Of a DNA stretch of 64,000 bases, positions 6,662 through 64,000 are shown one piece after another. The DNA is from Eledone cirrhosa (Eukaryota): the NCBI GenBank assembly GCA_964016885.1, contig OZ024757.1, positions 39,308,001-39,372,000 of the forward strand, given 5' to 3'. The position numbers and the translations under genes are program-made. Each line of letters starts with the position of its first letter. Position 1 is the stretch's first letter. A model generated the notes under the pieces. The model worked only from the letters and a program-made list of their open reading frames with translations, was not told the origin of the DNA and searched no databases.

Positions 6662-6941
6662 TGTATTAACCAATTACCAGTAAGAAAATTAGCTTAATAT
6701 CAAATATACTACAGAGCAGAAATACAACATAGATAACAAATAAATTCCTAATCCTTAGAACATTCATTATTTGTTTTAACACTGTATAGCCTCCGACGAA
6801 TCCAGACATATGTCTGAAAGAAACGACCGTTAGCAATTGAATGCATTAAACAAAAATTTGGTTGTTATCTATGTTGTATAATTAAATATATTTATTTTGT
6901 ATAAACCTAACCACAATGACTATTAATATCTTCTGTTGTAG

Positions 6942-7043
6942 GTTGGTGTATGGAACTTGAATACAGGAACAAACTTTTCAATTCCACAGGCAGAACCTGC
7001 CCCTCCATTTGGAAACAAGACTATGGTGGTGACAACTATATTG
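6942..7043 (+). CDS. GRIK2-like: Kainate-type ionotropic glutamate receptor, internal coding exon (end of ATD, linker and first S1 strand): VGVWNLNTGTNFSIPQAEPAPPFGNKTMVVTTIL
   Basis: Acceptor ttctgttgtag| and donor |gtaaga; 102 nt, phase 0/0, open frame. The peptide parallels vertebrate GluK IGTW...NRSLIVTTIL and joins in frame to EKPYV of exon 47264. It is too short to appear in the ORF track. Confidence 0.9.
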
Positions 7044-7339
7044 GTAAGACAGTCTTTTTACTTCCATCTCACATTTGATATGTTCAACATATGACTCCTA
7101 CACCTTCTTCTCCTCCTCCTTCAACTCTTCCTCTACGTTAACGAATAGTATTATTATTATTATTCCCACACCTTCCATTTTCTTTAAGATGTACTAGCTT
7201 AAAGTCATCGCCCTTCTATGCATGTCAGTCTCTATATTATTTTGCAATTGTTATTATTGTTGTTGTTGTTGATGTACTTATTTTGCCCAAATGTCAGTCT
7301 GTATTAGCTTTTGGTCATTTCTTGCTGAATCTGCGAGTG

Positions 7340-9440: not shown

Positions 9441-9809
9441 ATATATATGTGTGTGTGTGTGTGTACGTATGCATGAACAGAACCGTAAGTCTTGATTGGA
9501 GGAAAATAATTTAGAAATTTCTTTCATGACTGGCACAACGTTGATCATATATTTGCTTGTTCAAATCCAACTTGTGGTTAACAGGAATTTTATATGCCAA
9601 AAATAGTAGCCTCCAATATATTTTTGTATTTAACATATTGGGTTGTGTAGTGTTATAATATAACACCTGACAAACTGTTGGAGATATGAACAGGCATTCT
9701 CAGCTTCAATTCCACTGACTTTCGCTTTTGCTTTTCATCTTCGTTCATCTACAGATACCTAGTTATCTAACGACAGCAACAGTTGACTGATAAATGACAA
9801 GTCGGTCAA

Positions 9810-10160
9810 TCATGTTGGTGGCCTCCCCACAGCCCCGGCGGACAGAATGGAGAAGGCATTTCCCCGGAGGACGAAAAGCCATTCCAACTCGCGAGGCTCA
9901 CAGCTGCGGCTGGCCAGCTCAGCGCCTATGGTGGTGAGTAGGGCGGTAGGCGTAGCGCCGAGGACACCAGAAGTCTCCACTGCCAAGAGTACGACCGCAA
10001 ACCTGTTGGAGAGTGACCGGTATTTGGAGAGTTTGGTCTCCTCAGCCCGACGTGCAGCAGAACCAGGTTGCGGCTGCGATAAGGAATATGACACAGTATT
10101 AACGCAAACCTCTCTACTTTCACCTTCCATATCGGAGGTGTTCCGTTGGTCCAATGGCGG
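9810..10160 (-). mobile_element. Non-LTR retrotransposon fragment, restriction-like endonuclease C-terminus (CRE-like)
   Basis: Translation PGSAARRAEETKLSKY...AVETSGVLG...LRGNAFSIL matches the recognisable RLE C-terminal pattern. GC-rich island; related copy at 25515-25690. Confidence 0.8.
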
Positions 10161-11219
10161 GGGTTTCCAAATGACGTATGTGTCTGGTCGTGGCTGTATT
10201 TAACACCTAATACCTTTAAACAAAAGTATAGTACATACTACCATGTTAGTCATAATAGATTACAAATGACGGTCGTTAGTTTTTTAAGGGGATTTAATGG
10301 GATGACCATAGCTAAAAGAATGGGGTCACATTTTTGCATTAATTGGGCAATCCTGTATTATATTTAGTTCTCATATTTTCACATTTTCTCATTCGATCCG
10401 CTGAAAGATATGTGAGGCAGTAGAAAAGATTAAATATATATATATATATTTTATATATAGTACTCTCTAGAGTGTTGGAAAACAACCACTTAATTCATCG
10501 GGTCAACTATTGTAACATGTCATTTATGTCATTTCATTTGATTTTAAGATGAAAAATACATTTGAAAAAATTAAACAAATAATAACAAAACATTAAAGAT
10601 AATAGAGCGAAACAATCATAAGAGCGTTGGTATTTGTATTGGGCAGCTTCTTACGTCATGACAATTAGAGAATGAAAACAACAAATAATTTTAGCTGACA
10701 AACATTAAGCATAGAAAAATTTAAAAATAAAATAAAAATAAATTAAAAATAAAATACTGAAACTTCAATGGCAATAAAACAAAAACACAACACAAAAAAA
10801 TCCAGCAAACAAACAAACAAACCAAACCAAAAATAACAAATAAAAATAATTAACACAAATGAATTCAACCCTATAATAACACCCACAAGGTTTAGCATTT
10901 GATTAAAATAATAATAAAATAATACATAAACAGACACAAAGAAGAACAATTAAAAAAACGATTAATGTTAGAGAACTGTCCAGAATTTTGATGGGCCTTT
11001 TCCTTTTTCACGTTTGTTGGTTTTCGTGGTGTGTGTTTTTTTTAAATTATATTTTCTGGAGTGCGAGAGTGGATGGGGGTGTTCCTTTTTATCATCATCA
11101 TCGTTGTTATCATTGTTTTGTTTTCTGTTGTTATTTCATGATTTATTTATTATTTTTTAGATGGGTGTGGGGAGAGAAACCAGAACAATGGCAACAATAA
11201 TACAAGCATTGTTTTGTGG

Positions 11220-21329: not shown

Positions 21330-21579
21330 GTATGTATGTGTTTATGATATATATGAGTGTGTGCTTGCGTTTGTATTTAACGTGTTTATATGTGTGTGTG
21401 TTTGTGTATGAATATATATACATGTGGGTGTGTATATTTACATGTATGTATACATTGTTTGTTTTTGTAAACGTATAATTGTAAGGATATGGATATATAT
21501 ATATATATATATTTGTTTATAGAAGCATGAACTTCCTTCTAATTATACATTTATTTATCTAGGTATATGTACACGCCCA

Positions 21580-21650
<71 letters not shown>

Positions 21651-21889
21651 TTACAAACTGATGTATATACACATATAGCCTTCTTTATTTAATGCCTTCT
21701 ATGCACCTAGGTGTAAATATATTGTATATTATGATCAGTATATAACCAGTAGTCTCATTGTTATTTGTGTATTTCATTTTTCGTAAATTTGTCTTAAATT
21801 TGTTTTTGTGTATTTGGATATTTATATATGTATATGTACCTCCTTTCGGTGTAGCTTTTTACTAAATAACCTTCCTTATTGAGGTATTG

Positions 21890-21928
<39 letters not shown>

Positions 21929-22311
21929 CCATCCAGTTTTCTACCACTATATATATATATATTAGAACAGTCGGCACCTACCCTTAAGTTTCCCTCCTAA
22001 CCTTAGTGTTCCTTCTCCTACCCATACCCTCACTAGATCCCAAATATATAGTATCTGTGTTGTTGATAATAAAACTCACTAACATTACAATTATTATTAT
22101 TATCTTTATTATTATTATAGTTATTGTTCGGCCCTTGTGGCCAATAAATGAAATCATTATTATAGTTATTGTAATATTTTTTATTATAATTATGTGACTG
22201 ATAAAAGAATGTTATTATTACAATTATATTTATTGTTAATTCTATTGTTTTGTTTATATACATATACTGTACTTGTCACAACTGCTTTATTTATTTATAT
22301 ATATATTTATA

Positions 22312-22553
22312 TATAAACGTTTGTATTTGTAAAGCCAAAATAATGCAGGTATGGATATAGAATATAAATTCTAATGCAAAAGATATTGTTGACAATTAGT
22401 ATTTTACCTTAAATTTATTTAAATATCCTTAATTAGGGATATTTAAATAAATTTAAGGTAAAAGACTAATTGTCAACAATATCTTTTGCATTTGAATTTA
22501 TATTCTATATCCATACCTGCATTGTTTTGGCTTTACAAATACAAACGTTTATA
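22312..22553. repeat. Near-perfect 242-bp palindrome (121-bp arms, about 4 mismatches, no spacer)
   Basis: tataaacgtttgtatttgtaaagcc... / ...ggctttacaaatacaaacgtttata, centre at 22432/22433. Confidence 0.95.
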
Positions 22554-22754
22554 CTCATTACACAATGCTTCAAGTGAACTATAACTTCCTTCATATATGT
22601 ATATATATTTATGCTCTTAAATTGTTTATTTTATACTACTGGGATCTCCCTTCTCTACACCCTGCTCTTTATTGTGTGTGTAATTTGCTCTGCACTCTGT
22701 GTACGAAACTATAATTTATATTGTTAAGTGTCTTCTCTCCTTGTCATATTTCAG

Positions 22755-22781
22755 GAACCATTGAAAGTGACCACGCTCTTG
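22755..22781 (+). CDS. GRIK2-like: 27-nt microexon EPLKVTTLL, an alternative version of the first S1 beta-strand of the glutamate receptor
   Basis: Pyrimidine tract and acceptor tcttctctccttgtcatatttcag|, donor |gtacgt, phase 0/0. The peptide mirrors KTMVVTTIL at the end of exon 6942-7043 and ends at the same residue position. Confidence 0.7.
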
Positions 22782-22899
22782 GTACGTTATCAGCTCGTGG
22801 TGTGTGATGTTTCAGTTGTATTACAGTTGATCTTATATTATCTTATATTCTATTCTATTACCATATAATTGCCTATATATGCAAAGAGGTATATATACC

Positions 22900-22923
22900 T
22901 GTATGTATATGAATATATATACT

Positions 22924-22960
<37 letters not shown>

Positions 22961-23945
22961 TTATATATATACTTATATATATATATTTATTTATATATAA
23001 TATATATATATATATATACTTATATATATATATTTATTTATATATAATATATATATATATATATACTTATATATATATATTTATTTATATATAATATATA
23101 TATATATATATACTTATATATATATATTTATTTATATATAATATATATATATATATATACTTATATATATATATTTATTTATATATAATATATATATATA
23201 CTTATATATATACTTATATATATATATTTATTTATATATAATATATATATACTTATATATATATACTTATATATATATTTATTTATATATAATATATATA
23301 TATACTTATATATATATACTTATATATATACTTATATATATATATATTTATGTATATATATATATATATATATATACTTATATATATATATTTATGTATA
23401 TATATATATATATATATATATACTTATATATATATATTTATGTATATATATATATATATATATACTTATATATATATATTTATGTATATATAATGTATAT
23501 ATATATATTTATGTATATATAATGTATATATATATATTTATGTATATATATATATATATATATACTTATATATATATATTTATGTATATATAATGTATAT
23601 ATATATACTTATATATATATATTTATGTATATATATATATACTTATATATATATATATATATTTATTTATATATAATATATATACTTATATATATATTTA
23701 TATATAATATATATGCTTATATATATTTACATATATGTATATATATATTTATTTATATATAATATATATGTATATATATATTTATTTATATATAATATAT
23801 ATGTATATATATATTTATTTATATATAATATATATGTATATATATATTTATTTATATATAATATATATGTTTATATATATTTACATATATGCATATATAT
23901 ATAAATATTATATATATTATATATACTATATATAATATATATGCA
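22900..23945. repeat. Long degenerate (TA)n/TATACTTA microsatellite
   Basis: Direct reading. Confidence 0.95.
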
Positions 23946-47263: not shown

Positions 47264-47461
47264 GAGAAGCCATATGTGATGGTTAAAGATGAAAATGCCG
47301 AGGGGAATAGCCGGTACGAAGGATTCTGCGTAGATTTGCTGCACGAAATAGCACAAATTGTTGGATTTGAGTATACCATTGAGTTGGTACCAGATGGCAA
47401 ATATGGCGCCCCAAATGACAATCTGGAGTGGGATGGAATGATACGACAATTGATTGACAGG
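47264..47461 (+). CDS. GRIK2-like: Kainate-type iGluR exon, S1 ligand-binding segment: EKPYVMVKDENAEGNSRYEGFCVDLL...DGKYGAP...WDGMIRQLIDR
   Basis: ttacag| acceptor and |gtaaat donor; 198 nt, phase 0/0. Carries the iGluR motifs YEGFCVDLL, DGKYG and WDGMI. Confidence 0.96.
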
Positions 47462-52272: not shown

Positions 52273-52833
52273 AAAGCCGATTTAGCAGTGGCAGGTCTTA
52301 GCATCAGTTACATAAGGGAGCAAGTTATCGATTTTACAAAACCGTTTCTAAACCTCGGAATTAGTATTCTATTTAAAGTTCCAAAACGTGAAAAACCAGG
52401 ATTGTTTTCTTTTTTAAATCCATTAGCCATAGAAATATGGTTGTACGTAATCGCTGCCTACCTCGTCGTCAGCTTTACAATATTCATTTTAGCCAGATTT
52501 AGCCCCTACGAATGGTACAATCCACACCCGTGTAACCAAGATGCTGACACTGTTATGAATTCATTCACATTATCAAACAGTTTCTGGTTTACTGTGGGAA
52601 CATTGATGCAGCAGGGTTCGGATATCAACCCGAGAGCTGTGTCCACCCGTATTGTAGGCGGAATTTGGTGGTTTTTCACACTGATTATCATTTCGTCATA
52701 CACAGCCAACCTTGCGGCGTTTCTTACAGTGGAGCGAATGGTATCCCCTATTGAAAGTGCCGAGGATTTGGCCAAGCAGACCGAGATTTCCTACGGGACA
52801 CTTGCTGGCGGATCAACTATGACTTTCTTTAAG
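52273..52833 (+). CDS. GRIK2-like: Kainate-type iGluR exon: S1 end, M1, M2 pore loop, M3 and S2 start ([16 protein letters not shown]...MQQG...SYTANLAAF...GGSTMTFFK)
   Basis: Long pyrimidine tract with gcag| acceptor and |gtaaaa donor; 561 nt, phase 0/0. SYTANLAAF gate at 52696-52722. Kainate-family signatures [14 protein letters not shown] and [19 protein letters not shown]. One-to-one orthology to a single vertebrate GRIK paralogue cannot be established here. Confidence 0.98.
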
Positions 52834-53744: not shown

Positions 53745-56700
53745 CGTTTTAGTCATTTATAATGATGTTTTAGTCATTTATGTTGCCGTTTTAGCCATTT
53801 TATTGCCGTTTTAGCCAATTTAGTGTCATTTTAGTCATTTATGATGCCGTTTTAGCCATTGTGTAGCCATTTGAGATGTTTTAGTCGTTTTAGAGTCATT
53901 TTATTCATTCATGATGCCGTTTTTAGCCAGTTTAGTGTCATTTTAGTCATTTATTATGCCGTTTTAGCCACATTCATCATTTATGATGCCGTTAAAGCCA
54001 TTTTATTCAATTATGATGCTGTTTTAGCCATTTTAGAGTCATTTTAGTAATTTATGATGCTGTTTTAGCCATTTTAGAGGAATTCTAGTCGTTTTAGACG
54101 TTTTAGAGTCATTTGAGTCAATTATGATGCCGCTTTAGCCATTTGAGAGGCATTGTAGTCGTTTTAGAGTCATTTTAGTCAACTATGATGTCGTTTTAGC
54201 CATTTTATAGTCATTTTAGACGTATTAGTCGTTTTAGAGTCATTTTATTCATTCATTTATGGTGCTGTTTTAGCCATTTTAGAGGAATTTTAGTCAATTA
54301 TAATGCACTTTTAGTTATTTTATAGCCATTTTAGATGTTTTAGTCGTTTTCGAGTCATTTTAGTCATTTATGATGCAGTTGTTGCCATTTTAGAGTCATT
54401 TTAGAGGTTTTAGTCGTTTTAGTCAATAGTGATATAGTTTTAGTCATTTTAGTCAATTATGATACCGTTTTACTCATTTACTTTAGTCGTTTTAGAGTCA
54501 TTTTAGTCAATTATGATGACGTTTTCTGTCATTTTAGACGTTTGAGTCGATTTAGACTCATTTTATTCATTTATGATGCTGATTTAGCCATTTTGAAGTC
54601 ATTTTAGTCAGGTATGATGCAGTTTTAGTCATTTTATAGCCATTTTAGACGTTTTAGTTATTTCAGAGTCATTTTATTCATTTATGATGATGTAGCAATT
54701 TTATAGTCATTTTTAGTCATTTATGATGCAGTTTTAGCCATTTTAGAGTCATTTTAGTCAATTATGATGCCGTTTTACTCATTTACGAGTTATTGTAGTC
54801 GATTTAGTCATTTATGATGCAGTTTAAGCCGTTTTAGAGTAATTTTAGTCAATTATGATGCTGTTTTAGCCATTTTAGTGTCATTCTAGTCGTTTTAGTC
54901 ATTTATGATGCAGTTTAAGCCCTTTTAGAAGAATTCTAGTCGTTTTAGAGTCATTTTAGTCAATTATTATGCCGTTTTAGCGATTATGTAGCCATTTTCT
55001 GTCATTTGAGTCGTTTTAGAGTCATTGTATTCATTTATGATGCTGTTTTAGGCATTTTAGAAGAATTCTAGTCATTTTAGACGTTTTAGAGTCATTTTAG
55101 TCAATTATGATGCTGTTTTAGCCATTTTAGAGTCACTTTAGTCATTTATGATGCAGTTTTAGTCATTTTATAGTCATTTAATTCGTTATAGAGAAATTCT
55201 TTTCATTTATGGTGCTGTTTTAGCCATTTTAGAGTAATTTTAGTCATTTATAATGAAGTTTTAGCTATTTTAGAGTCATTTTAGAAATTTTAGTGTCATT
55301 TTAGTCAATAATGATGCCTGTTTTAGCTATTTTAGAGACGTTTTAGAGTCATTTTAGTCAATTATGATGCCGTTTTAGTCATTATACAGCCATTTTCTGT
55401 CATTATAGAGGTTTTAGAGTCATTTCAGTCAATTATGATGCTGTTTTAGCCATTTTAGAGTCATTTTAGACGTTTTAGAGACATTTTAGTCAATCATGAT
55501 GCCGTTTGAGCCATTATATAGCCATTTTCGGTCATTTTAGACGTTTTAGAGTCATTTTATTTATTTATGATGCTGTTTTAGCCATTTTAGTCATTTATGA
55601 TGCAGTTTTAGTCATTTTATAGCCATTTTACACGTTTTATTCGTTATAGAGTAATTTTCTTCATTTATGGTGCTGTTTTAACCATTTTAGAGTGATTTTA
55701 GTCATTTATGATGCAGTTTTAGCTATTTTAGTCATTTTATACGTTTTAGACGTTTTAGGGTCATTTTAGTCAATAATGATGCAGTGTTAGCCATTTTAGA
55801 GGAATTCAAGTCGTTTTAGAAGTTTTAGAGTCATTTTAGTCAATTATGATGCTGTTTTAGCCATTTTAGTCATTTATGATGCTGTTTTAGTCAGTTTATA
55901 GCGATTTTGTTCGTTATAGAGTAATTTACTTCGTTTATGGTGCTGATTTAGCCATTTTAGTCATTTATAATGCATTTTTAGCTATTTTAGACGTTTTAGA
56001 GTCATTTTAGTTAATTATGATTCCGTTTTAGCCATTATATAGCCATTTTCCGTGATTTTAGACGTATTAGAGTCATTTTATTCATTTATGATTCTGTTTT
56101 AGCCATTTTAGAGACATTTTAGTCATTTATGATGCAGTTTTAGTCATTTTATAGACATTTTACACGTTTTATTCGTTATAGAGTAATTTTCTTCATTTAT
56201 GGTGCTGTTTTAGACATTTTAGAGTCATTTTAGTCATTTATAATGCAGTTGTAGCTATTTTAGAGTCATTTTAGTCGTTTCAGAGTAATTTTAGTCAATT
56301 ATGATGACGTTTTAGCCCTTTTAGAGGAATTTTAGTCGTTTTAGAGTCGTTTTTGTCATTTATGATGCAGTTTTAGCCATTTTATAGCCATTTTAGACGT
56401 TTTAGAGACATTTCAGTCAATAATTGTAGTTTTAGCCATTTCAGAGTCGTTTTAGACGTTTTAGAGTCATTTTATTCAATTATTATGACGTTTTAGCCCT
56501 TTTAGAGGAATTATTTGTCGTTTTAGAGTCACTTTAGTCAATTATGATGCCGTTTTAGCCATTATATAGCCATTTTCAGTCATTTTAGACGTTTTAGAGT
56601 CATTTTATTCATTTATGCTGCTGTTTTAACCATTTTAGACGTTTTAGAGTCATTTTAGTCCATTATGATTCCGTTTTAGCCATTATATAGCCATTTCCCG

Positions 56701-59700
56701 TCATTTTAGACGGTTTAGAGACATTTTATTCATTCATGATGCTGTTTTAGCCAATTTAGTGTCATTTTAGTCATTTATAATGCAGTTTTAGCTATTTTTG
56801 AGTCATTTTAGACGTTTTAGAGTCATTTTAGCCATTATATAGCCATTTTCTGTCATTTTAGACGTTTTAGAGTCATTTTATTCATTTATGATGCTGTTTT
56901 ATCCATTTTACACGTTTTAGAGTCATTTTACTCAATTATGATGCCGTTTTAGCCATTATATAGCAATGTTCCGTTATTTTAGACGTTTTAGAGTCATTTT
57001 ATTCATTCATGATGCTGTTTTAGCCATTTTAGAGTTATTTTAGTCATTTATGATTTACCTTTCGCCATTTTAGACGTTTTAGAGTCATTTTAGTTAATTA
57101 TGATGCCGTTTGAGACATTATATAGCCATTTTCCGTCATTTTAGACGTTTTAGACTCATTTTATTCATTCATGATGCTGATTTAGACATTTTACAGTAAT
57201 TTCAGTCAATAATGATGCAGTTTTAGCCATTTTAGACTCATTTTAGACGTTTTAGAGTAATTTTAGTCATATTATGATGCAGTTTTCCTCATTTACAAGT
57301 CATTTTAGTCGTTTTAGAGTAATTCTAGTCAATTATGATGCAGTTTTACTCATTTACAAGTCGTTTTAGAGTCATTTTAGTCGATTATGATGACGTTTTA
57401 GCCCTTTTAGAGGAATTCTAGACGTTTCAGAGTCATTTTAGTCAATTATGATGCCGTTTTAGCCATTATATAGCCATTTTCTGTCATTATAGAGGTTTAG
57501 AGTCATTTTAGTCATTTATGATGCAGTTTTAGCCATTTTAGAGTAATTTTACTCATTTATGATGCAGTTTTAGCCATTTTAGATGTTTTAGAGCCATTTT
57601 AGTCAATTATGATGCCGTTTGAACAAGTATATAGACATTTTCCGTCATTTCAGACGTTTTAGAGGCATTTAATTCATTTATGATGCTGTTTTAGCCATTT
57701 TAGAGTCATTTTAAAAGTGTTAGACGTTTTAGAGTCATTTTATCCATTATATAGCCATTTTCTGTCATTTTAGACGTTTTAGAGTTAATTTAGTCAAGTA
57801 TGGTGCGGTTTAGCCATTTCAGAGTCATTTTAATCATTTGTGATGCAGTTTTAGCCATTTTATAGCCATTTTAGTCATTTATAATGCAGTTTTAGCTATT
57901 TTAGAGTTATTTTAATATTTTAGAGTCATTTCAGTCAATAATTATGCAGTTTTAGTCGCTTTAGAAGTTTTAGAGTCATTTTAGTCAATTATGATGCAGT
58001 TTTACTCATTTACAAGTCATTTTAGTCAATTATGATGACGCTTTAGCCCTTGTAGAGGAATTATAGTCGTTTTAGACGTTTTAGAGTCATTTTAGTCAAT
58101 TATGATGCCGTTTTAGCCATTATATAGCCATTTTCTCTCATCATAGAGGTTATAGAGTCATTTAGTCAATTATGATGCTGTTTTAGCCATTTTAGAGTAA
58201 TTTTACTCATTTATGATGCAGTTTTAGCCATTTTATAGCCATTTTAGACGTTTTAGAGTCATTTTAGTCAATTATGATGCTGTTTGAGCAATTATATAGA
58301 CATTTTCCGTCATTTTAGACGTTTTAGAGTCATTTCATTCATTCATGATGCTCTTTTAGCCATTATATAGCCATTTTCCCTCATTTTAGACGTTTTAGTG
58401 TCATTTTATTCATTTATGATGCTGTTTTAGCCATTTGTGAGTCATTTTAGTCATTTATAATGCAGTTTTAGCTATTTTAGAGTTATTTTAATCGTTTTAG
58501 ACGTTTAAGAGTCATTTCAGTCAATAATTATGCAGTGTTAGACATTTTAGAGTCGTTTTAGAGTAAATTTAGTCAATTATGATGCAGTTTTACTCATATA
58601 CAAGTCGTTTTAGAGTCACTTTAGTCAATTATTATGACGTTTAGCACTTTTAGAGGAATTATAGTCGTTTTAGATGTTTAAGAGTCATTCTAGACAATTA
58701 TGATGCCGTTTTAGCCATTTTAGTGGAATTATAGTCGTTTTAGAGGCATTTTAGTCAATTATGATTCCGTTTTAGCCATTATATAGCCATTTTCCATCAT
58801 TTTAGACGTTTTAGTGTCATTTTATTTATTTATGATGCTGTTTTAGCCATTTTAGAGTCATTTTAGTCATGTATAATGCAGTTTTAGCTATTTTAGAGTT
58901 ATTTTAATCGTTTTAGACGTTTTAGAGTCATTTCAGTCAATAATTATGCAGTTTTAGCCGTTTTAGAGTCATTTTAGTCAATTATAATGCAGTTTTACTC
59001 ATTTACAAGTCATTTTAGTCGTTTTAGAGTCATTTTAGTCAATTATTATGACATTTTAGCCCCTTTAGAGGAATTATAGTCGTTTTAGATGTTTTAGGGT
59101 CATTTTAGTCAATTATGATGCCGTTTTAGCCATTATATAGCCATTTCCTGTCATTATAGAGGTTTTAGAGTCATTTTGGTCAATTATGATGCTGTTGTAG
59201 CTATTTTAGTTTAATTTTAGTCCTTTATAATGCATTTTTAGCCATTTTAGAGTCATTTTAGTCAATTATAATGCCGTTTTAACCATTATATAGCCATTTT
59301 CTGTCATTATAGAGGTTTTAGAGTCATTTTAGTCAATTATGATGCTGTTTTAGCCATTATATAGCTTTTTCAGTCATTTTAGACGTTTTAGAGTCATTTT
59401 ATTCATTCAAGATGCTGTTTTAGCCATTTTAGTGTCATTTTAGTCATTTATAATGCAGTTTTAGCTATTTTAGACTCATTTTAGTCGTTTTATACGTTTC
59501 AGAGTAATTTAAGTCAATAATGATGCAGTTTTAGCCATTTTAGAAGCAGTTTAGTTGTTTTAGACATTTTAGAGTCATTTTAGTCTATTATGATGCAGTT
59601 TTACTCTTTTCCAACGCATTTTAGTCGTTTTAGAGTCAATTATGATGATGCTTTAGCCCTTTTAGAGGAATTATAGTCGTTTTAGACGTTTTAGAGTCAT

Positions 59701-62700
59701 TATAGTCAATCATGATGCCGTTTTAGCCATTATATAGCCATTTTCTGTCATTTTAGACGTTTTAGAGTCATTTTAGTCAATTATGATGATGTTTTAGCCA
59801 TTTTATAGCCATTTTAGACGTTTTAGAGTCATTTTAGTCAATTATGATGCCGTTTTAGCCATTTTAGAGGCATTTTAGTCGTTTTAGACGTTTCAGAGTC
59901 ATTTTATTCAATTATGATGCCGTTTTAGCCATTATATAGCCATTTTCAGTCATTTTAGACGTTTTAGAGTCATGTTAGTCAATTATGATGCTGTTTTAGC
60001 CATTTTAGAGTAATTTTATTCATTTATGATGCAGTTTTAGACGTTTTAGAGTCATTTTACACAATTATGATGCCGTTTTAGCCATTTTAGTAGCAGTTTA
60101 GTTGTTTTAGACATTTTAGAGTCATTTAGTCAATTATGATGCTGTTTTACTCTTCTCCAACGCATTTTAGTCGTTTTAGAGTCAATTTAGTCAATTATGA
60201 TGACGCTTTAGCTCTTTTAGAGGAATTATAGTCGTTTTAGACGTTTTAGAGTCATTTTAGTCAATTATGATGCCGTTTTAGCTATTATATAGCCATTTTC
60301 TGTCATCATAGAGGTTATAGAGTTATTTAGTCAATTATGATGCCGTTTTAGCCATTTTAGAATAATTTTACTTATTTATGATGCAGTTTTAGCGCTTTTA
60401 TAGACATTTAGACGTTTTAAAGTCATTTTAGACAATTATGATGCCATTTTAGAGGCAGTTTAGTCGTTTTAGACGTTTTAGAGTCATTATAGTCAATCAT
60501 GATGCCGTTTTAGCCATTATATAGCCATTTTCTGTCATTTTAGACGTTTTAGAGTCATTTTAGTCAATTATGATGATGTTTTAGCCATTTTAGAGTAATT
60601 CTAGTCATTTATGATGCAGTTTTAGCCATTTTATAGCCGTTTTAGAGTCATTTTAGTTAATTATGATGCCGTTTGAGACATTATATAGCTATTTTCCGTC
60701 ATTTTAGACGTTTTAGAGTCATTTTATTCATTCATGATGCAGTTTTAGACGTTTTAGAGTTATTTTAGACAATTATGATGCCGTTTTAGCCATTTTAGAA
60801 GTAGTTTAGTTGTTTTAGACCTTTTAGATTCATTTTAGTCAATTATGATGCAGTTTTACTCATTTACAAGTCATTTTAGTCGTTTTAGAGTCATTTTAGT
60901 CAATTATGATGACGCTTTAGCCCTTTTAGAGAAATTATAGTCGTTTTAGACGTTTTAGAGTCATTTTAGTCAATTATGATGCCGTTTTAGCCATTATATA
61001 GCCATTTTCTGTCATCATAGAGGTTATAGAGTCATTTAGTCAATTATGATGCTGTTTTAGCCATTTTAGAGTAATTTTACTCATTTATGATGCAGTTTTA
61101 GCCATTTAATAGCCATTTTAGACGTTTTAGAGTCATTTTAGTCAATTATATAGATATTTCCGTCATTTTAGATGTTTTAGAGTCATTTCATTCATTTATG
61201 ATGCTCTTTTAGCCATTATATAGCCATTTTCCCTCATTTTAGCCATTTTAGAGTCATTTTAGTCATTTATAATGCAGTTTTAGCTATTTTAGAGTTATTT
61301 TAATCGTTTTAGACGTTTAAGTGTCATTTCAGTCAATAATTATGCAGTGTTAGACATTTTAGAGTCGTTTTAGGCGTTTTAGAGTCATTTTAGTCAATTA
61401 TGATACAGTTTTACTCATTTACAAGTCATTTTTGTCATATTAGAGTCATTTTACTCAATTATCATGCTGTTTTAGCCATTTTAGAGTCATTTTAATCATT
61501 TATGATGCACTTTTAGCTATTTTATAGCCATTTTAGATGTTTTAGACGTTTTAGAGTCATTTTAGTTAATTCTGATGCCGTTTGAGACATTATATAGCCA
61601 TTTTCCGTCATGTTAGACGTTTTAGACTCATTTTATTCATTCATGATGCTGATTTAGACATTTTAGTGTCATTTTAGTCATTTATAATGCACTTTTAGCT
61701 ATTTTAGACTCATCTTAGTCGTTTTATACGTTTCAGAGTAATTTAAGTCAATAATGATGCAGTTTTAGCCATTTAGAGTCTGTTTTAGACGTTTTAGAGT
61801 AAATTTAGTCAATTATGATGCAGTTTTACTCATTTACAAGTCATTTTAGTCGTTTTAGAGTAATGTTAGTCAATTATGATGCAGTTTTACTCATTTACAA
61901 GTCATTTTAGTCGTTTTAGAGTAATGTTAGTCAATTATGATGCAGTTTTACTCATTTACAAGTCATTTTAGTCGTTTTAGAGACATTTTAGTCAATTATG
62001 ATGACGTTTTAGCCCTTTTAGAGAGATTATAGTCGTTTTAGACGTTTTAGAGTAATTTTAGTCAATTATGATGCCGTTTTAGCCATTATATAACCATTGT
62101 CTATCATTATAGAGGTTTTAGAGTCATTTTAGTCAATTATTATACTGTTTTAGCCATTTTAGAGTAATTTTATTCATTTATGATGCAGTTTTAGACGTTT
62201 TAGAGTCATTTTAGACAATTATGATGCCGTTTTAGCCATTTTAGAAGCAGTTTAGTTGTTTTAGACCTTTTAGAGTCATTTTATTCAATTATGATGCTGT
62301 TTTATCCATTTTAGTCATTTATGATGCATTTTTGGCCATTTTATAGCCATTTTAGACGTTTAGAGTCCTTTTAGTCAATTATGATGCAGTTTTAACCATT
62401 TTAGAGGAATTTTACTCATTTATGATGCAGTTTTAGCGATTTATAGCAATTTTAGACGTTTTAAAGTCATTTTAGACAATTATGATGCTGTTTTAGCCAT
62501 TTTAGAGTCATTTTAGACGTTTTAGATTCATTATAGTCAATCATGATGCCGTTTTAGCCATTATATATCCATTTTCTGTCAATTTAGACGTTTTAGAGTC
62601 ATTTTAGTCAATTATGATGATGTTTTAGCCATTTTAGACGTTTTAGAGTCATTTTAGTCAATTATGATGCCGTTTTAGCCATTATATAGCCATTTTCAGT

Positions 62701-64000
62701 CATTTTAGACGTTTTAGAGTCATGTTAGTCAATTATGATGCTGTTTTAGCCATTTTAGAGTAATGTTATTCATTTATGATGCAGTTTTAGACGTTTTAGA
62801 GTCATTTTAGACAATGATGATGCAGTTTTACTCATTTACAACGCATTTTAGTCGTTTTAGAGTCATTTTAGTCAATTATGATGACGCTTTAGCCCTTTTA
62901 GAGGAATTATAGTCGTTTTAGAGGCATTTTAGTCAATTACGATGCCGTTTTAGCCATTATATAGCCATTTTCCGTCATTTAGACGTTTTAGTGTCATTTT
63001 ATTCATTTATGATGCTGTTTTAGCCATTTTAGAGTCATTTTAGTCATTTATAATGCAGTTTTAGCTATTTTAGAGTCATTTTAGTCGTTTTAGACGTTTT
63101 AGAGTCATTTTAGTCAATCATGATGCAGTTTTACTCATTTACAAGTCATTTTAGTCGTTTTAGAGTCATTTTAGTCAATTATTATGACGTTTTAGCCCTT
63201 TTAGAGGAATTATAGTCGTTTTAGATGTTTAAGAGTCATTTTAGTCAATTATGATGCCGTTTTAGCTATTTTAGAGGCACTTTAGACGTTTTACAGTCAT
63301 TTTAGTCAATTATGATGCCGTTTTAGCCATTATATAGCCATTTTCCGTCATTGTAGACGTTTTAGAGTCATTTTATTCATTTATGATTCTGTTTTAGCCA
63401 TTTTAGAGTCATTTTAGTCATTTATAATGCAGTTTTAGCTATTTTAGAGTCATTTTAGTCGTTTTAGACGTTTTAGAGTCATTTTAGTCAATCATGATGC
63501 AGTTTACTCATTTACAAGTCATTTTAGTCGTTTTAGAGTCATTTTAGTCAATTATTATGACGTTTTAGCCCTTTTAGAGGAATTATAGTCGTTTTAGATG
63601 TTTAAGAGTCATTTTAGTCAATTATGATGCCGTTTTAGCTATTTTAGAGGCACTTTAGACGTTTTACAGTCATTTTAGTCAATTATGATGCCGTTTTAGC
63701 CATTATATAGCCATTTTCCGTCATTGTAGACGTTTTAGAGTCATTTTATTCATTTATGATTCTGTTTTAGCCATTTTAGAGACATTTTAGTCATTTATCA
63801 TGCAGTTTATTCATTTTATAGCCATTTGACACGTTTTATTCGTTATAGAGTCATTTTCTTCATTTAATGTGCTGTTGTAGCCATTCTAGAGTAATTTTAG
63901 TCATTTATAATGCAGTTTTAGATATTGTATAGCCATTTTAGACGTTTTTGAGTTATTTTCGTCAATAATGATGTAGTTTTACCTATTTTAGAGTCATTTT
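53745..64000. repeat. Complex intronic satellite (>10 kb, runs off the window) built from ~9-10-bp TTTTAG-centred subunits
   Basis: Recurring cattttagt, cgttttaga, ttttagagt and agtcaattatgatgccgtttt modules in shuffled order, with local higher-order duplications. No long ORFs in any frame. Confidence 0.95.

Follow-up and report, generated by a model that had tools for sequence, protein, structure and literature searches.

A known splice variant near the interface between the ATD and the ligand-binding domain (LBD) of a kainate receptor is exon 9 of GluK1 (GluK1-1 vs GluK1-2; PMC11540303, PMC8257547), a 15-residue cassette that alters desensitization, recovery and Neto effects (PMC11540303). 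The exon analyzed here, a 27-nt microexon in a kainate-type glutamate receptor gene of the cephalopod Eledone cirrhosa, resembles it in being a splice insert near the same interface. GluK1 exon 9, however, lies one exon earlier, before IGIW (P0268), and repeats nothing, whereas the molluscan microexon follows the first S1 strand and duplicates it. Orthology of the two exons was rejected, since the GluK1 insert precedes the IGIW exon and the microexon follows the equivalent exon. Exon 5 of GluN1 (the N1 cassette; PMC11540303) is also a splice insert at the ATD-LBD interface, but belongs to an NMDA receptor, differs in place and sequence and involves no duplicated strand. AMPA flip/flop (PMC8257547; for the general class, PMC9741552) likewise rests on a duplicated exon piece of the LBD that provides two versions of one element. 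In the present case, by contrast, the duplication is confined to the final 27 nt of an exon, both copies stand in one mRNA, and the swap between them is predicted to occur in the folded protein and not by exclusive splicing.

A further point of comparison is the glycan at N402 of GluK3, the loss of which shortens recovery from 0.9 to 0.5 s, while the EC50 of the single N402 mutant is unchanged (10.3 vs 9.5 mM; PMC6635489). The same sequon position, ten residues before the E of ExPY, is occupied in the molluscan receptors. In GluK3 the glycan was removed by mutation, whereas in molluscs it would be displaced through splicing and likely lost through editing. One survey of splicing in human iGluRs describes itself as unsuited to microexons (PMC8257547), and no paper describing the present microexon was found in the open literature, subscription papers lying mostly outside that search; Supplementary Fig. 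11 of PMC9068888, an alignment of squid GRIK, may show the insert. Four motifs searched for in the supplements of PMC5225553 and PMC6307864 were absent from both; as motifs of the upstream strand were among the four, these blanks say little. PMC8382838 offered no information on linker length, and PMC8382921 mentions kainate in its references alone.

Host gene and position of the microexon

The window, that is, the whole 64,000-nt stretch of Eledone cirrhosa DNA that was analyzed, includes three long coding exons, all on the + strand, that belong to a kainate-type glutamate receptor gene. The features referred to below are the following.

6942..7043, + strand: upstream exon, encoding the end of the ATD, the linker, an N-K-T sequon and KTMVVTTIL, the ancestral first strand
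7014..7025, + strand: N-K-T-M codons; the sequon maps to GluK3 N402/S404, and A7020 and A7023 are candidate editing sites
22574..22754, + strand: 3' splice-site region, pyrimidine-rich and AG-poor, with partial likeness to the eMIC code
22611..22727, + strand: 38-codon hydrophobic ORF that shares the frame of the microexon and ends in TAA at 22725-22727; candidate signal-peptide exon
22755..22781, + strand: 27-nt microexon encoding EPLKVTTLL, which repeats the first LBD strand (basis: sequence, and cephalopod and Ostrea proteins)
22782..22787, + strand: 5' splice site gtacgt, matching 6 of 9 consensus positions and in this equal to the canonical donor at 7044
47264..47461, + strand: downstream S1 exon, beginning EKPY (basis: sequence and match to orthologues)
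52273..52833, + strand: exon encoding the last part of S1, M1-M3 and the first part of S2 (basis: sequence and match to orthologues)

The orthologues that these exons match (P0076, P0121, P0124) score above the cut-off for PF01094, PF10613 and PF00060, and show the architecture of a kainate-class receptor, with ATD, S1, M1-M3, S2 and M4. The peptide of the first exon in the window is identical to the Argonauta hians model at 34 of 34 residues; searched alone against the PDB, this 34-residue peptide gave no match. A PDB search returned GluK2 at 930 bits, against 658 for the best GluA-type entry, and a quick tree groups the host gene with arthropod kainate-like proteins and Biomphalaria InvGluR-K1. 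Judged from its sequence, the host gene is of the kainate class, nearer to GluK than to GluA, and of the molluscan InvGluR-K1 type, class names being provided by PMC5225553 and PMC6307864. Elsewhere in the window, a G+C-rich island (about 60%) at 9787-10237 contains several open frames and is possibly a mobile-element fragment; three frames at 9787-10234 had no Pfam match. A degenerate satellite array of ~10 kb, built of 10-20-base subunits with higher-order periods, occupies about 53800-64000, in the intron after exon 52273-52833. The tRNA search found none.

Splice signals and chance expectation

The microexon is preceded by a pyrimidine tract and ttcag, is followed by gtacgt and is of phase 0-0, while the upstream exon, ending in KTMVVTTIL, is followed by the donor gtaaga. 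The next exon starts with EKPY, so that inclusion of the microexon preserves the reading frame. The intron in which it lies spans 40 kb between exons 6942-7043 and 47264-47461, and is divided by the microexon into parts of 15.7 and 24.5 kb. It is identical at 15 of 27 bases to the final 27 nt of the upstream exon, and is likely a duplicate of the 3' end of that exon, donor included. Microexons are usually taken to be at most 27 nt long; at this length, with AG and GT at its borders and the frame kept, the exon has the features of a coding microexon.

By itself, the peptide match of the microexon is within chance and unexceptional. Its score of 20 is surpassed by 2 of the 1,712 stop-free nine-codon stretches ending at a GT within the 40-kb interval (scores of 23 and 21). 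If an AG is also required, however, the microexon tops the 793 remaining candidates (20, with the runner-up at 12), and against a profile built from 149 single-copy strands it ranks first of 482 (11.5, next 3.4). A chance origin of the match was rejected, the decisive evidence being the independent cephalopod sequences described below.

The acceptor region was compared with the code described for neural microexons dependent on eMIC/Srrm234 (PMC8797185). The two are alike in the length of 27 nt, a multiple of three, in a pyrimidine-rich and AG-poor acceptor and in the presence of UCUC words. From 22573 to the acceptor there is a sole AG (22727), TGC and TCTC each occur four times within 160 nt, and UCUC is found at -21/-19. 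The likeness is nevertheless partial, as the nearest UGC stands at -64 and thus not close to the acceptor, an AG is present at -27, neither CUAAY nor more generally CTRAY occurs, and the introns measure 15.7 and 24.5 kb. Just upstream of the pyrimidine tract, at about 22430-22600, lies a high-copy diverged repeat fragment. Four sequencing runs aligned to 21930-22885 revealed repeats alone and gave no cover from 22634 onward. No Rfam match was obtained for 21500-23000.

Inclusion of the microexon in cephalopod transcripts

A search with the M1-M2 exon led to P0076, a Logan protein of 951 residues with 99% identity to the query, in which the junction reads VVVTTVL-EPLKVTTLL-EKPY. The cluster of this protein has 12 members, 8 of which span the junction, and 7 of these 8 carry the insert in the form TT(I/V)L-(E/D)PLKVTTLL-EKPY; they comprise six Logan proteins of another cephalopod and the Argonauta hians model GAB1607022.1, in which E is changed to D. 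The six Logan proteins derive from contigs of 3241-3387 nt, which contain the entire ORF and are too short for genomic DNA of the gene, and therefore come from spliced RNA. Two of them (P0130, P0131) differ from P0076 in the presence or absence of VSK at residues 850-852 of the C-terminal tail, a difference that likely reflects another small alternative splice. The reality of the microexon is settled by these independent sequences, which carry the nine residues at the same junction, although the six Logan proteins may represent one species and are not independent of one another. The initial proposals that 22755-22781 is a real spliced microexon repeating the first strand of S1, and that it is conserved in frame in relatives, are thereby borne out, and the microexon is very probably functional in Eledone cirrhosa.

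In all seven insert-carrying sequences the complete upstream exon is retained, the microexon follows it and EKPY comes next, so that the microexon constitutes a tandem insert. A mutually exclusive arrangement of duplicated exons is at odds with the presence of both copies in these seven sequences and in the oyster protein X1 described below. The preliminary description had envisaged that the microexon might replace exon 6942-7043, or be joined from an internal donor at 7029-7030. Either event would keep the frame, and the GT of the internal donor does exist, but neither appears in any of the seven included sequences, loss of 6942-7043 would remove the conserved VGxW stretch of the homologues, and the internal donor matches only 5 of 9 consensus positions; both routes are accordingly extremely unlikely.

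The same sequences bear on the possibility that the microexon completes the LBD of an ATD-less receptor transcribed from an internal promoter, a signal-peptide exon (e.g. from ATG 22611, with a 54- or 75-nt intron) being spliced to 22755. A hydrophobic ATG-initiated ORF is indeed in frame with the microexon, and S1S2 crystal constructs begin ~12 residues before the E of EEPY, so that the microexon would supply most of what the downstream exon falls short of. Such an N-terminus, however, is found in none of the 12 cluster members, the available donors are weak (5/9 and 4/9), an in-frame TAA intervenes at 22725 and the high-copy repeat lies directly upstream. The ATG at 22611, the nearest candidate for the first-exon model that the preliminary description mentions without spelling out, is moreover no better than chance, since a similar mini-ORF accompanies 19 of the 157 acceptor-like sites of the window. 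The 22611 ORF, which had no Pfam match, is likely a by-product of the pyrimidine tract, and we consider an ATD-less receptor of this kind very unlikely.

Gene models of other octopods treat the exon differently. The Octopus vulgaris model (P0121) skips the nine residues and is the sole cephalopod case of skipping, with doubtful termini. In O. bimaculoides the RefSeq gene is broken into two half proteins, XP_014788118.1 and XP_052831423.1 (P0122, P0123), exactly at the microexon intron; judged by length, both belong to one scaffold. Both observations agree with the earlier expectation that gene models would miss the exon. They are also relevant to whether the microexon is constitutive in cephalopods, the O. 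vulgaris skip being a prediction error. The exon would then be a fixed linker extension instead of a switch, with the strand swap discussed below still holding. Inclusion in 6 of 6 Logan proteins fits such a reading, as would the O. bimaculoides split if direct joins of the 7043-47264 type are rare. On the other side, minor paths are lost from contigs, the acceptor region resembles that of regulated microexons in being rich in pyrimidines and poor in AG, and included and skipped forms are both annotated in one species, the oyster Ostrea edulis, while no single cephalopod species showed both. Constitutive inclusion is on balance somewhat unlikely.

A likely oyster counterpart and the probable age of the exon

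The Ostrea edulis proteins XP_048767441.1 (X1) and XP_048767442.1 (X2) differ solely in a 12-residue insert, NSDRPLIVTTRL, located between TTVL and DKPY. This insert, known from the RefSeq protein only and of 12 residues as compared with 9 in cephalopods, has 6 of its last nine residues in common with the microexon of the window. In a quick tree of 33 rows, the cephalopods fall into a single clade with Ostrea, Sinanodonta, Dreissena, Biomphalaria and Lottia (SH-aLRT 100), and one Biomphalaria member of the clade bears the name InvGluR-K1. The Argonauta and Ostrea models already contain the peptide, without comment.

In a scan of 448 proteins, restricted to those in which the motif could be parsed, the doubled strand was detected in eight, namely the seven cephalopod sequences and oyster X1. 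The insert is absent from the models of Biomphalaria (4 of 4 spanning proteins), Lottia, Potamilus, Sinanodonta and Dreissena (2 of 2), and is in these gastropod and other bivalve models either lost or missed by annotation. Among proteins shorter than 523 residues, none of the 11 matches obtained from 28 candidates spans the junction, and a search of 50% representatives gave no additional duplicated strand among the 150 matches listed.

The oyster and cephalopod inserts might have arisen by separate duplications of the same exon end, as their different lengths (12 vs 9) and the failure to find the insert in the other gastropod and bivalve models would suggest. The two inserts, however, occur in the same orthologue and at the same junction, and share the proline at -8, within a P-L pair at -8/-7, that is present in just 2 of 149 single-copy strands; gene models, besides, commonly miss microexons. 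Separate origins are in our assessment quite unlikely, and the comparison points instead to a microexon that is likely optional, common to cephalopods and bivalves and as old as their split.

Other variants were seen among the relatives. In insects (P0141, P0151, P0156, P0166, P0169, P0172; P0081 vs P0082), two tandem copies of the downstream S1 exon, likely mutually exclusive, are present at the same junction and represent a separate duplication. Palaemon proteins P0426-P0429 have a short optional ATD insert just before VGxW, as in GluK1 exon 9, and Crassostrea P0270 and P0425 differ in a 14-residue optional insert in the middle of the ATD of another kainate-like subunit. The ~1800-residue Crassostrea virginica models P0008, P0132 and P0133 fuse two neighbouring kainate-like genes and are likely annotation fusions of a tandem pair.

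Register of the two strands and length of the linker

In nearly every arthropod and mollusc row, G-x-W and E-x-P-Y are 30 residues apart; the spacing is 32 in oyster X2, 34 in GluK2-like rows and 39 when the microexon is included. Given how widespread the 30-residue spacing is, skipping gives the ancestral length, and the lengthening of the ATD-LBD link anticipated in the preliminary description amounts to a change from 30 to 39 residues.

With both copies in one protein, the microexon strand, joined directly to E-K-P-Y, would dock as the first strand of the LBD, and the ancestral strand with its N-x-T glycan would be pushed nine residues out into the linker. The predicted role of the microexon is thus that of a strand-swap switch at the ATD-LBD junction. 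In included forms, the PF10613 match starts within the microexon strand (P0076 at 427, P0124 at 400, P0262 at 434; profile position 3), while in skipped forms it starts at the upstream strand, at profile position 1. An ESM model of oyster X1 (pTM 0.45) aligned to two short relatives from residues 425 and 429, spanning the insert at 428-439. The Pfam and ESM evidence on register is prediction, and favours whichever copy adjoins EKPY.

Alternatively, the upstream strand may stay in the sheet while the nine residues bulge out next to the glutamate cleft, just ahead of E-K-P-Y, or both registers may be populated. The unedited upstream strand scores higher on the strand profile (19.5, as against 11.5 for the microexon) and retains the sequon, MAFFT aligned the homologous strands to the upstream copy, and this copy is still conserved in cephalopods despite its supposed displacement. 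Such conservation would, however, be expected anyway if skipped forms are made. Furthermore, whether squid-like, octopod or oyster, the insert keeps its hydrophobic residues in alternation, a pattern that a loop would not need, and both Pfam and the ESM model set it in register. We therefore regard a bulge, or a mixture of registers, as decidedly unlikely, and docking of the microexon strand as the preferred reading.

Glycan site and candidate editing

The E of ExPY is residue 412 in the structure chains of GluK3, which places the site ten residues before it (-10) at N402/S404. An N-x-T sequon occupies this position in 126 of 149 single-copy strands and in none of the included forms. Inclusion of the microexon would accordingly shift the glycan away from the domain.

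A second layer of variation is suggested by the differences among the six Logan proteins (P0076, P0127-P0131). All five substitutions, E42G, T417A, M418V, M761V and N904S, are compatible with A>G changes, compared with 15 of 75 possible one-step pairs. T417A, found in 3 of the 6 proteins, destroys the N-K-T sequon, and M418V is found in 5 of 6; the equivalent positions in the window are A7020 and A7023. Editing at the Logan sites is inferred here from protein differences of the A>G type, and squid GRIK transcripts are described as heavily edited (PMC9068888). On this basis, A-to-I editing of the displaced strand, in the form of the T>A change, would likely remove the glycan altogether. Folding of 6900-7200 revealed no unusual structure that could act as an editing partner (z -0.38); a partner could lie farther off.

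Discussion

The evidence assembled here probably describes a conserved, frame-keeping exon of an InvGluR-K1-type gene, which stands in tandem with the strand it duplicates in the transcripts of another cephalopod, is likely optional and ancient, and is predicted to serve as a strand-swap switch. The oyster counterpart, the displaced glycan site and the editing-type change at that site go beyond the preliminary description. Judging by GluK3 N402 and GluK1 exon 9, inclusion of the exon would be predicted to loosen the coupling between ATD and LBD and to alter recovery from desensitization and glutamate sensitivity. A bolder proposal, which we advance tentatively and hold to be doubtful, is that a splice switch kept since the split of cephalopods and bivalves gives the receptor two interchangeable first strands, and that in cephalopods editing of the older strand and of its glycan site determines the strand that docks and the tightness with which the ATD is tied. 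Splicing, editing and glycosylation would then meet on an 18-residue module tuning gating neuron by neuron.

The microexon explains the split or shortened annotations of a cephalopod kainate receptor, and sequences cloned or modelled from these annotations may lack nine residues present in the transcripts. The likely conservation between cephalopods and oyster argues for function. Vertebrate GluK1 and GluN1 are tuned by splice inserts near the ATD-LBD interface, but among the published inserts that were found there is none in which a core LBD strand is duplicated. The included and skipped forms would provide a natural receptor pair differing in linker length, first strand and glycan position, and hence a direct test of ATD-LBD coupling.
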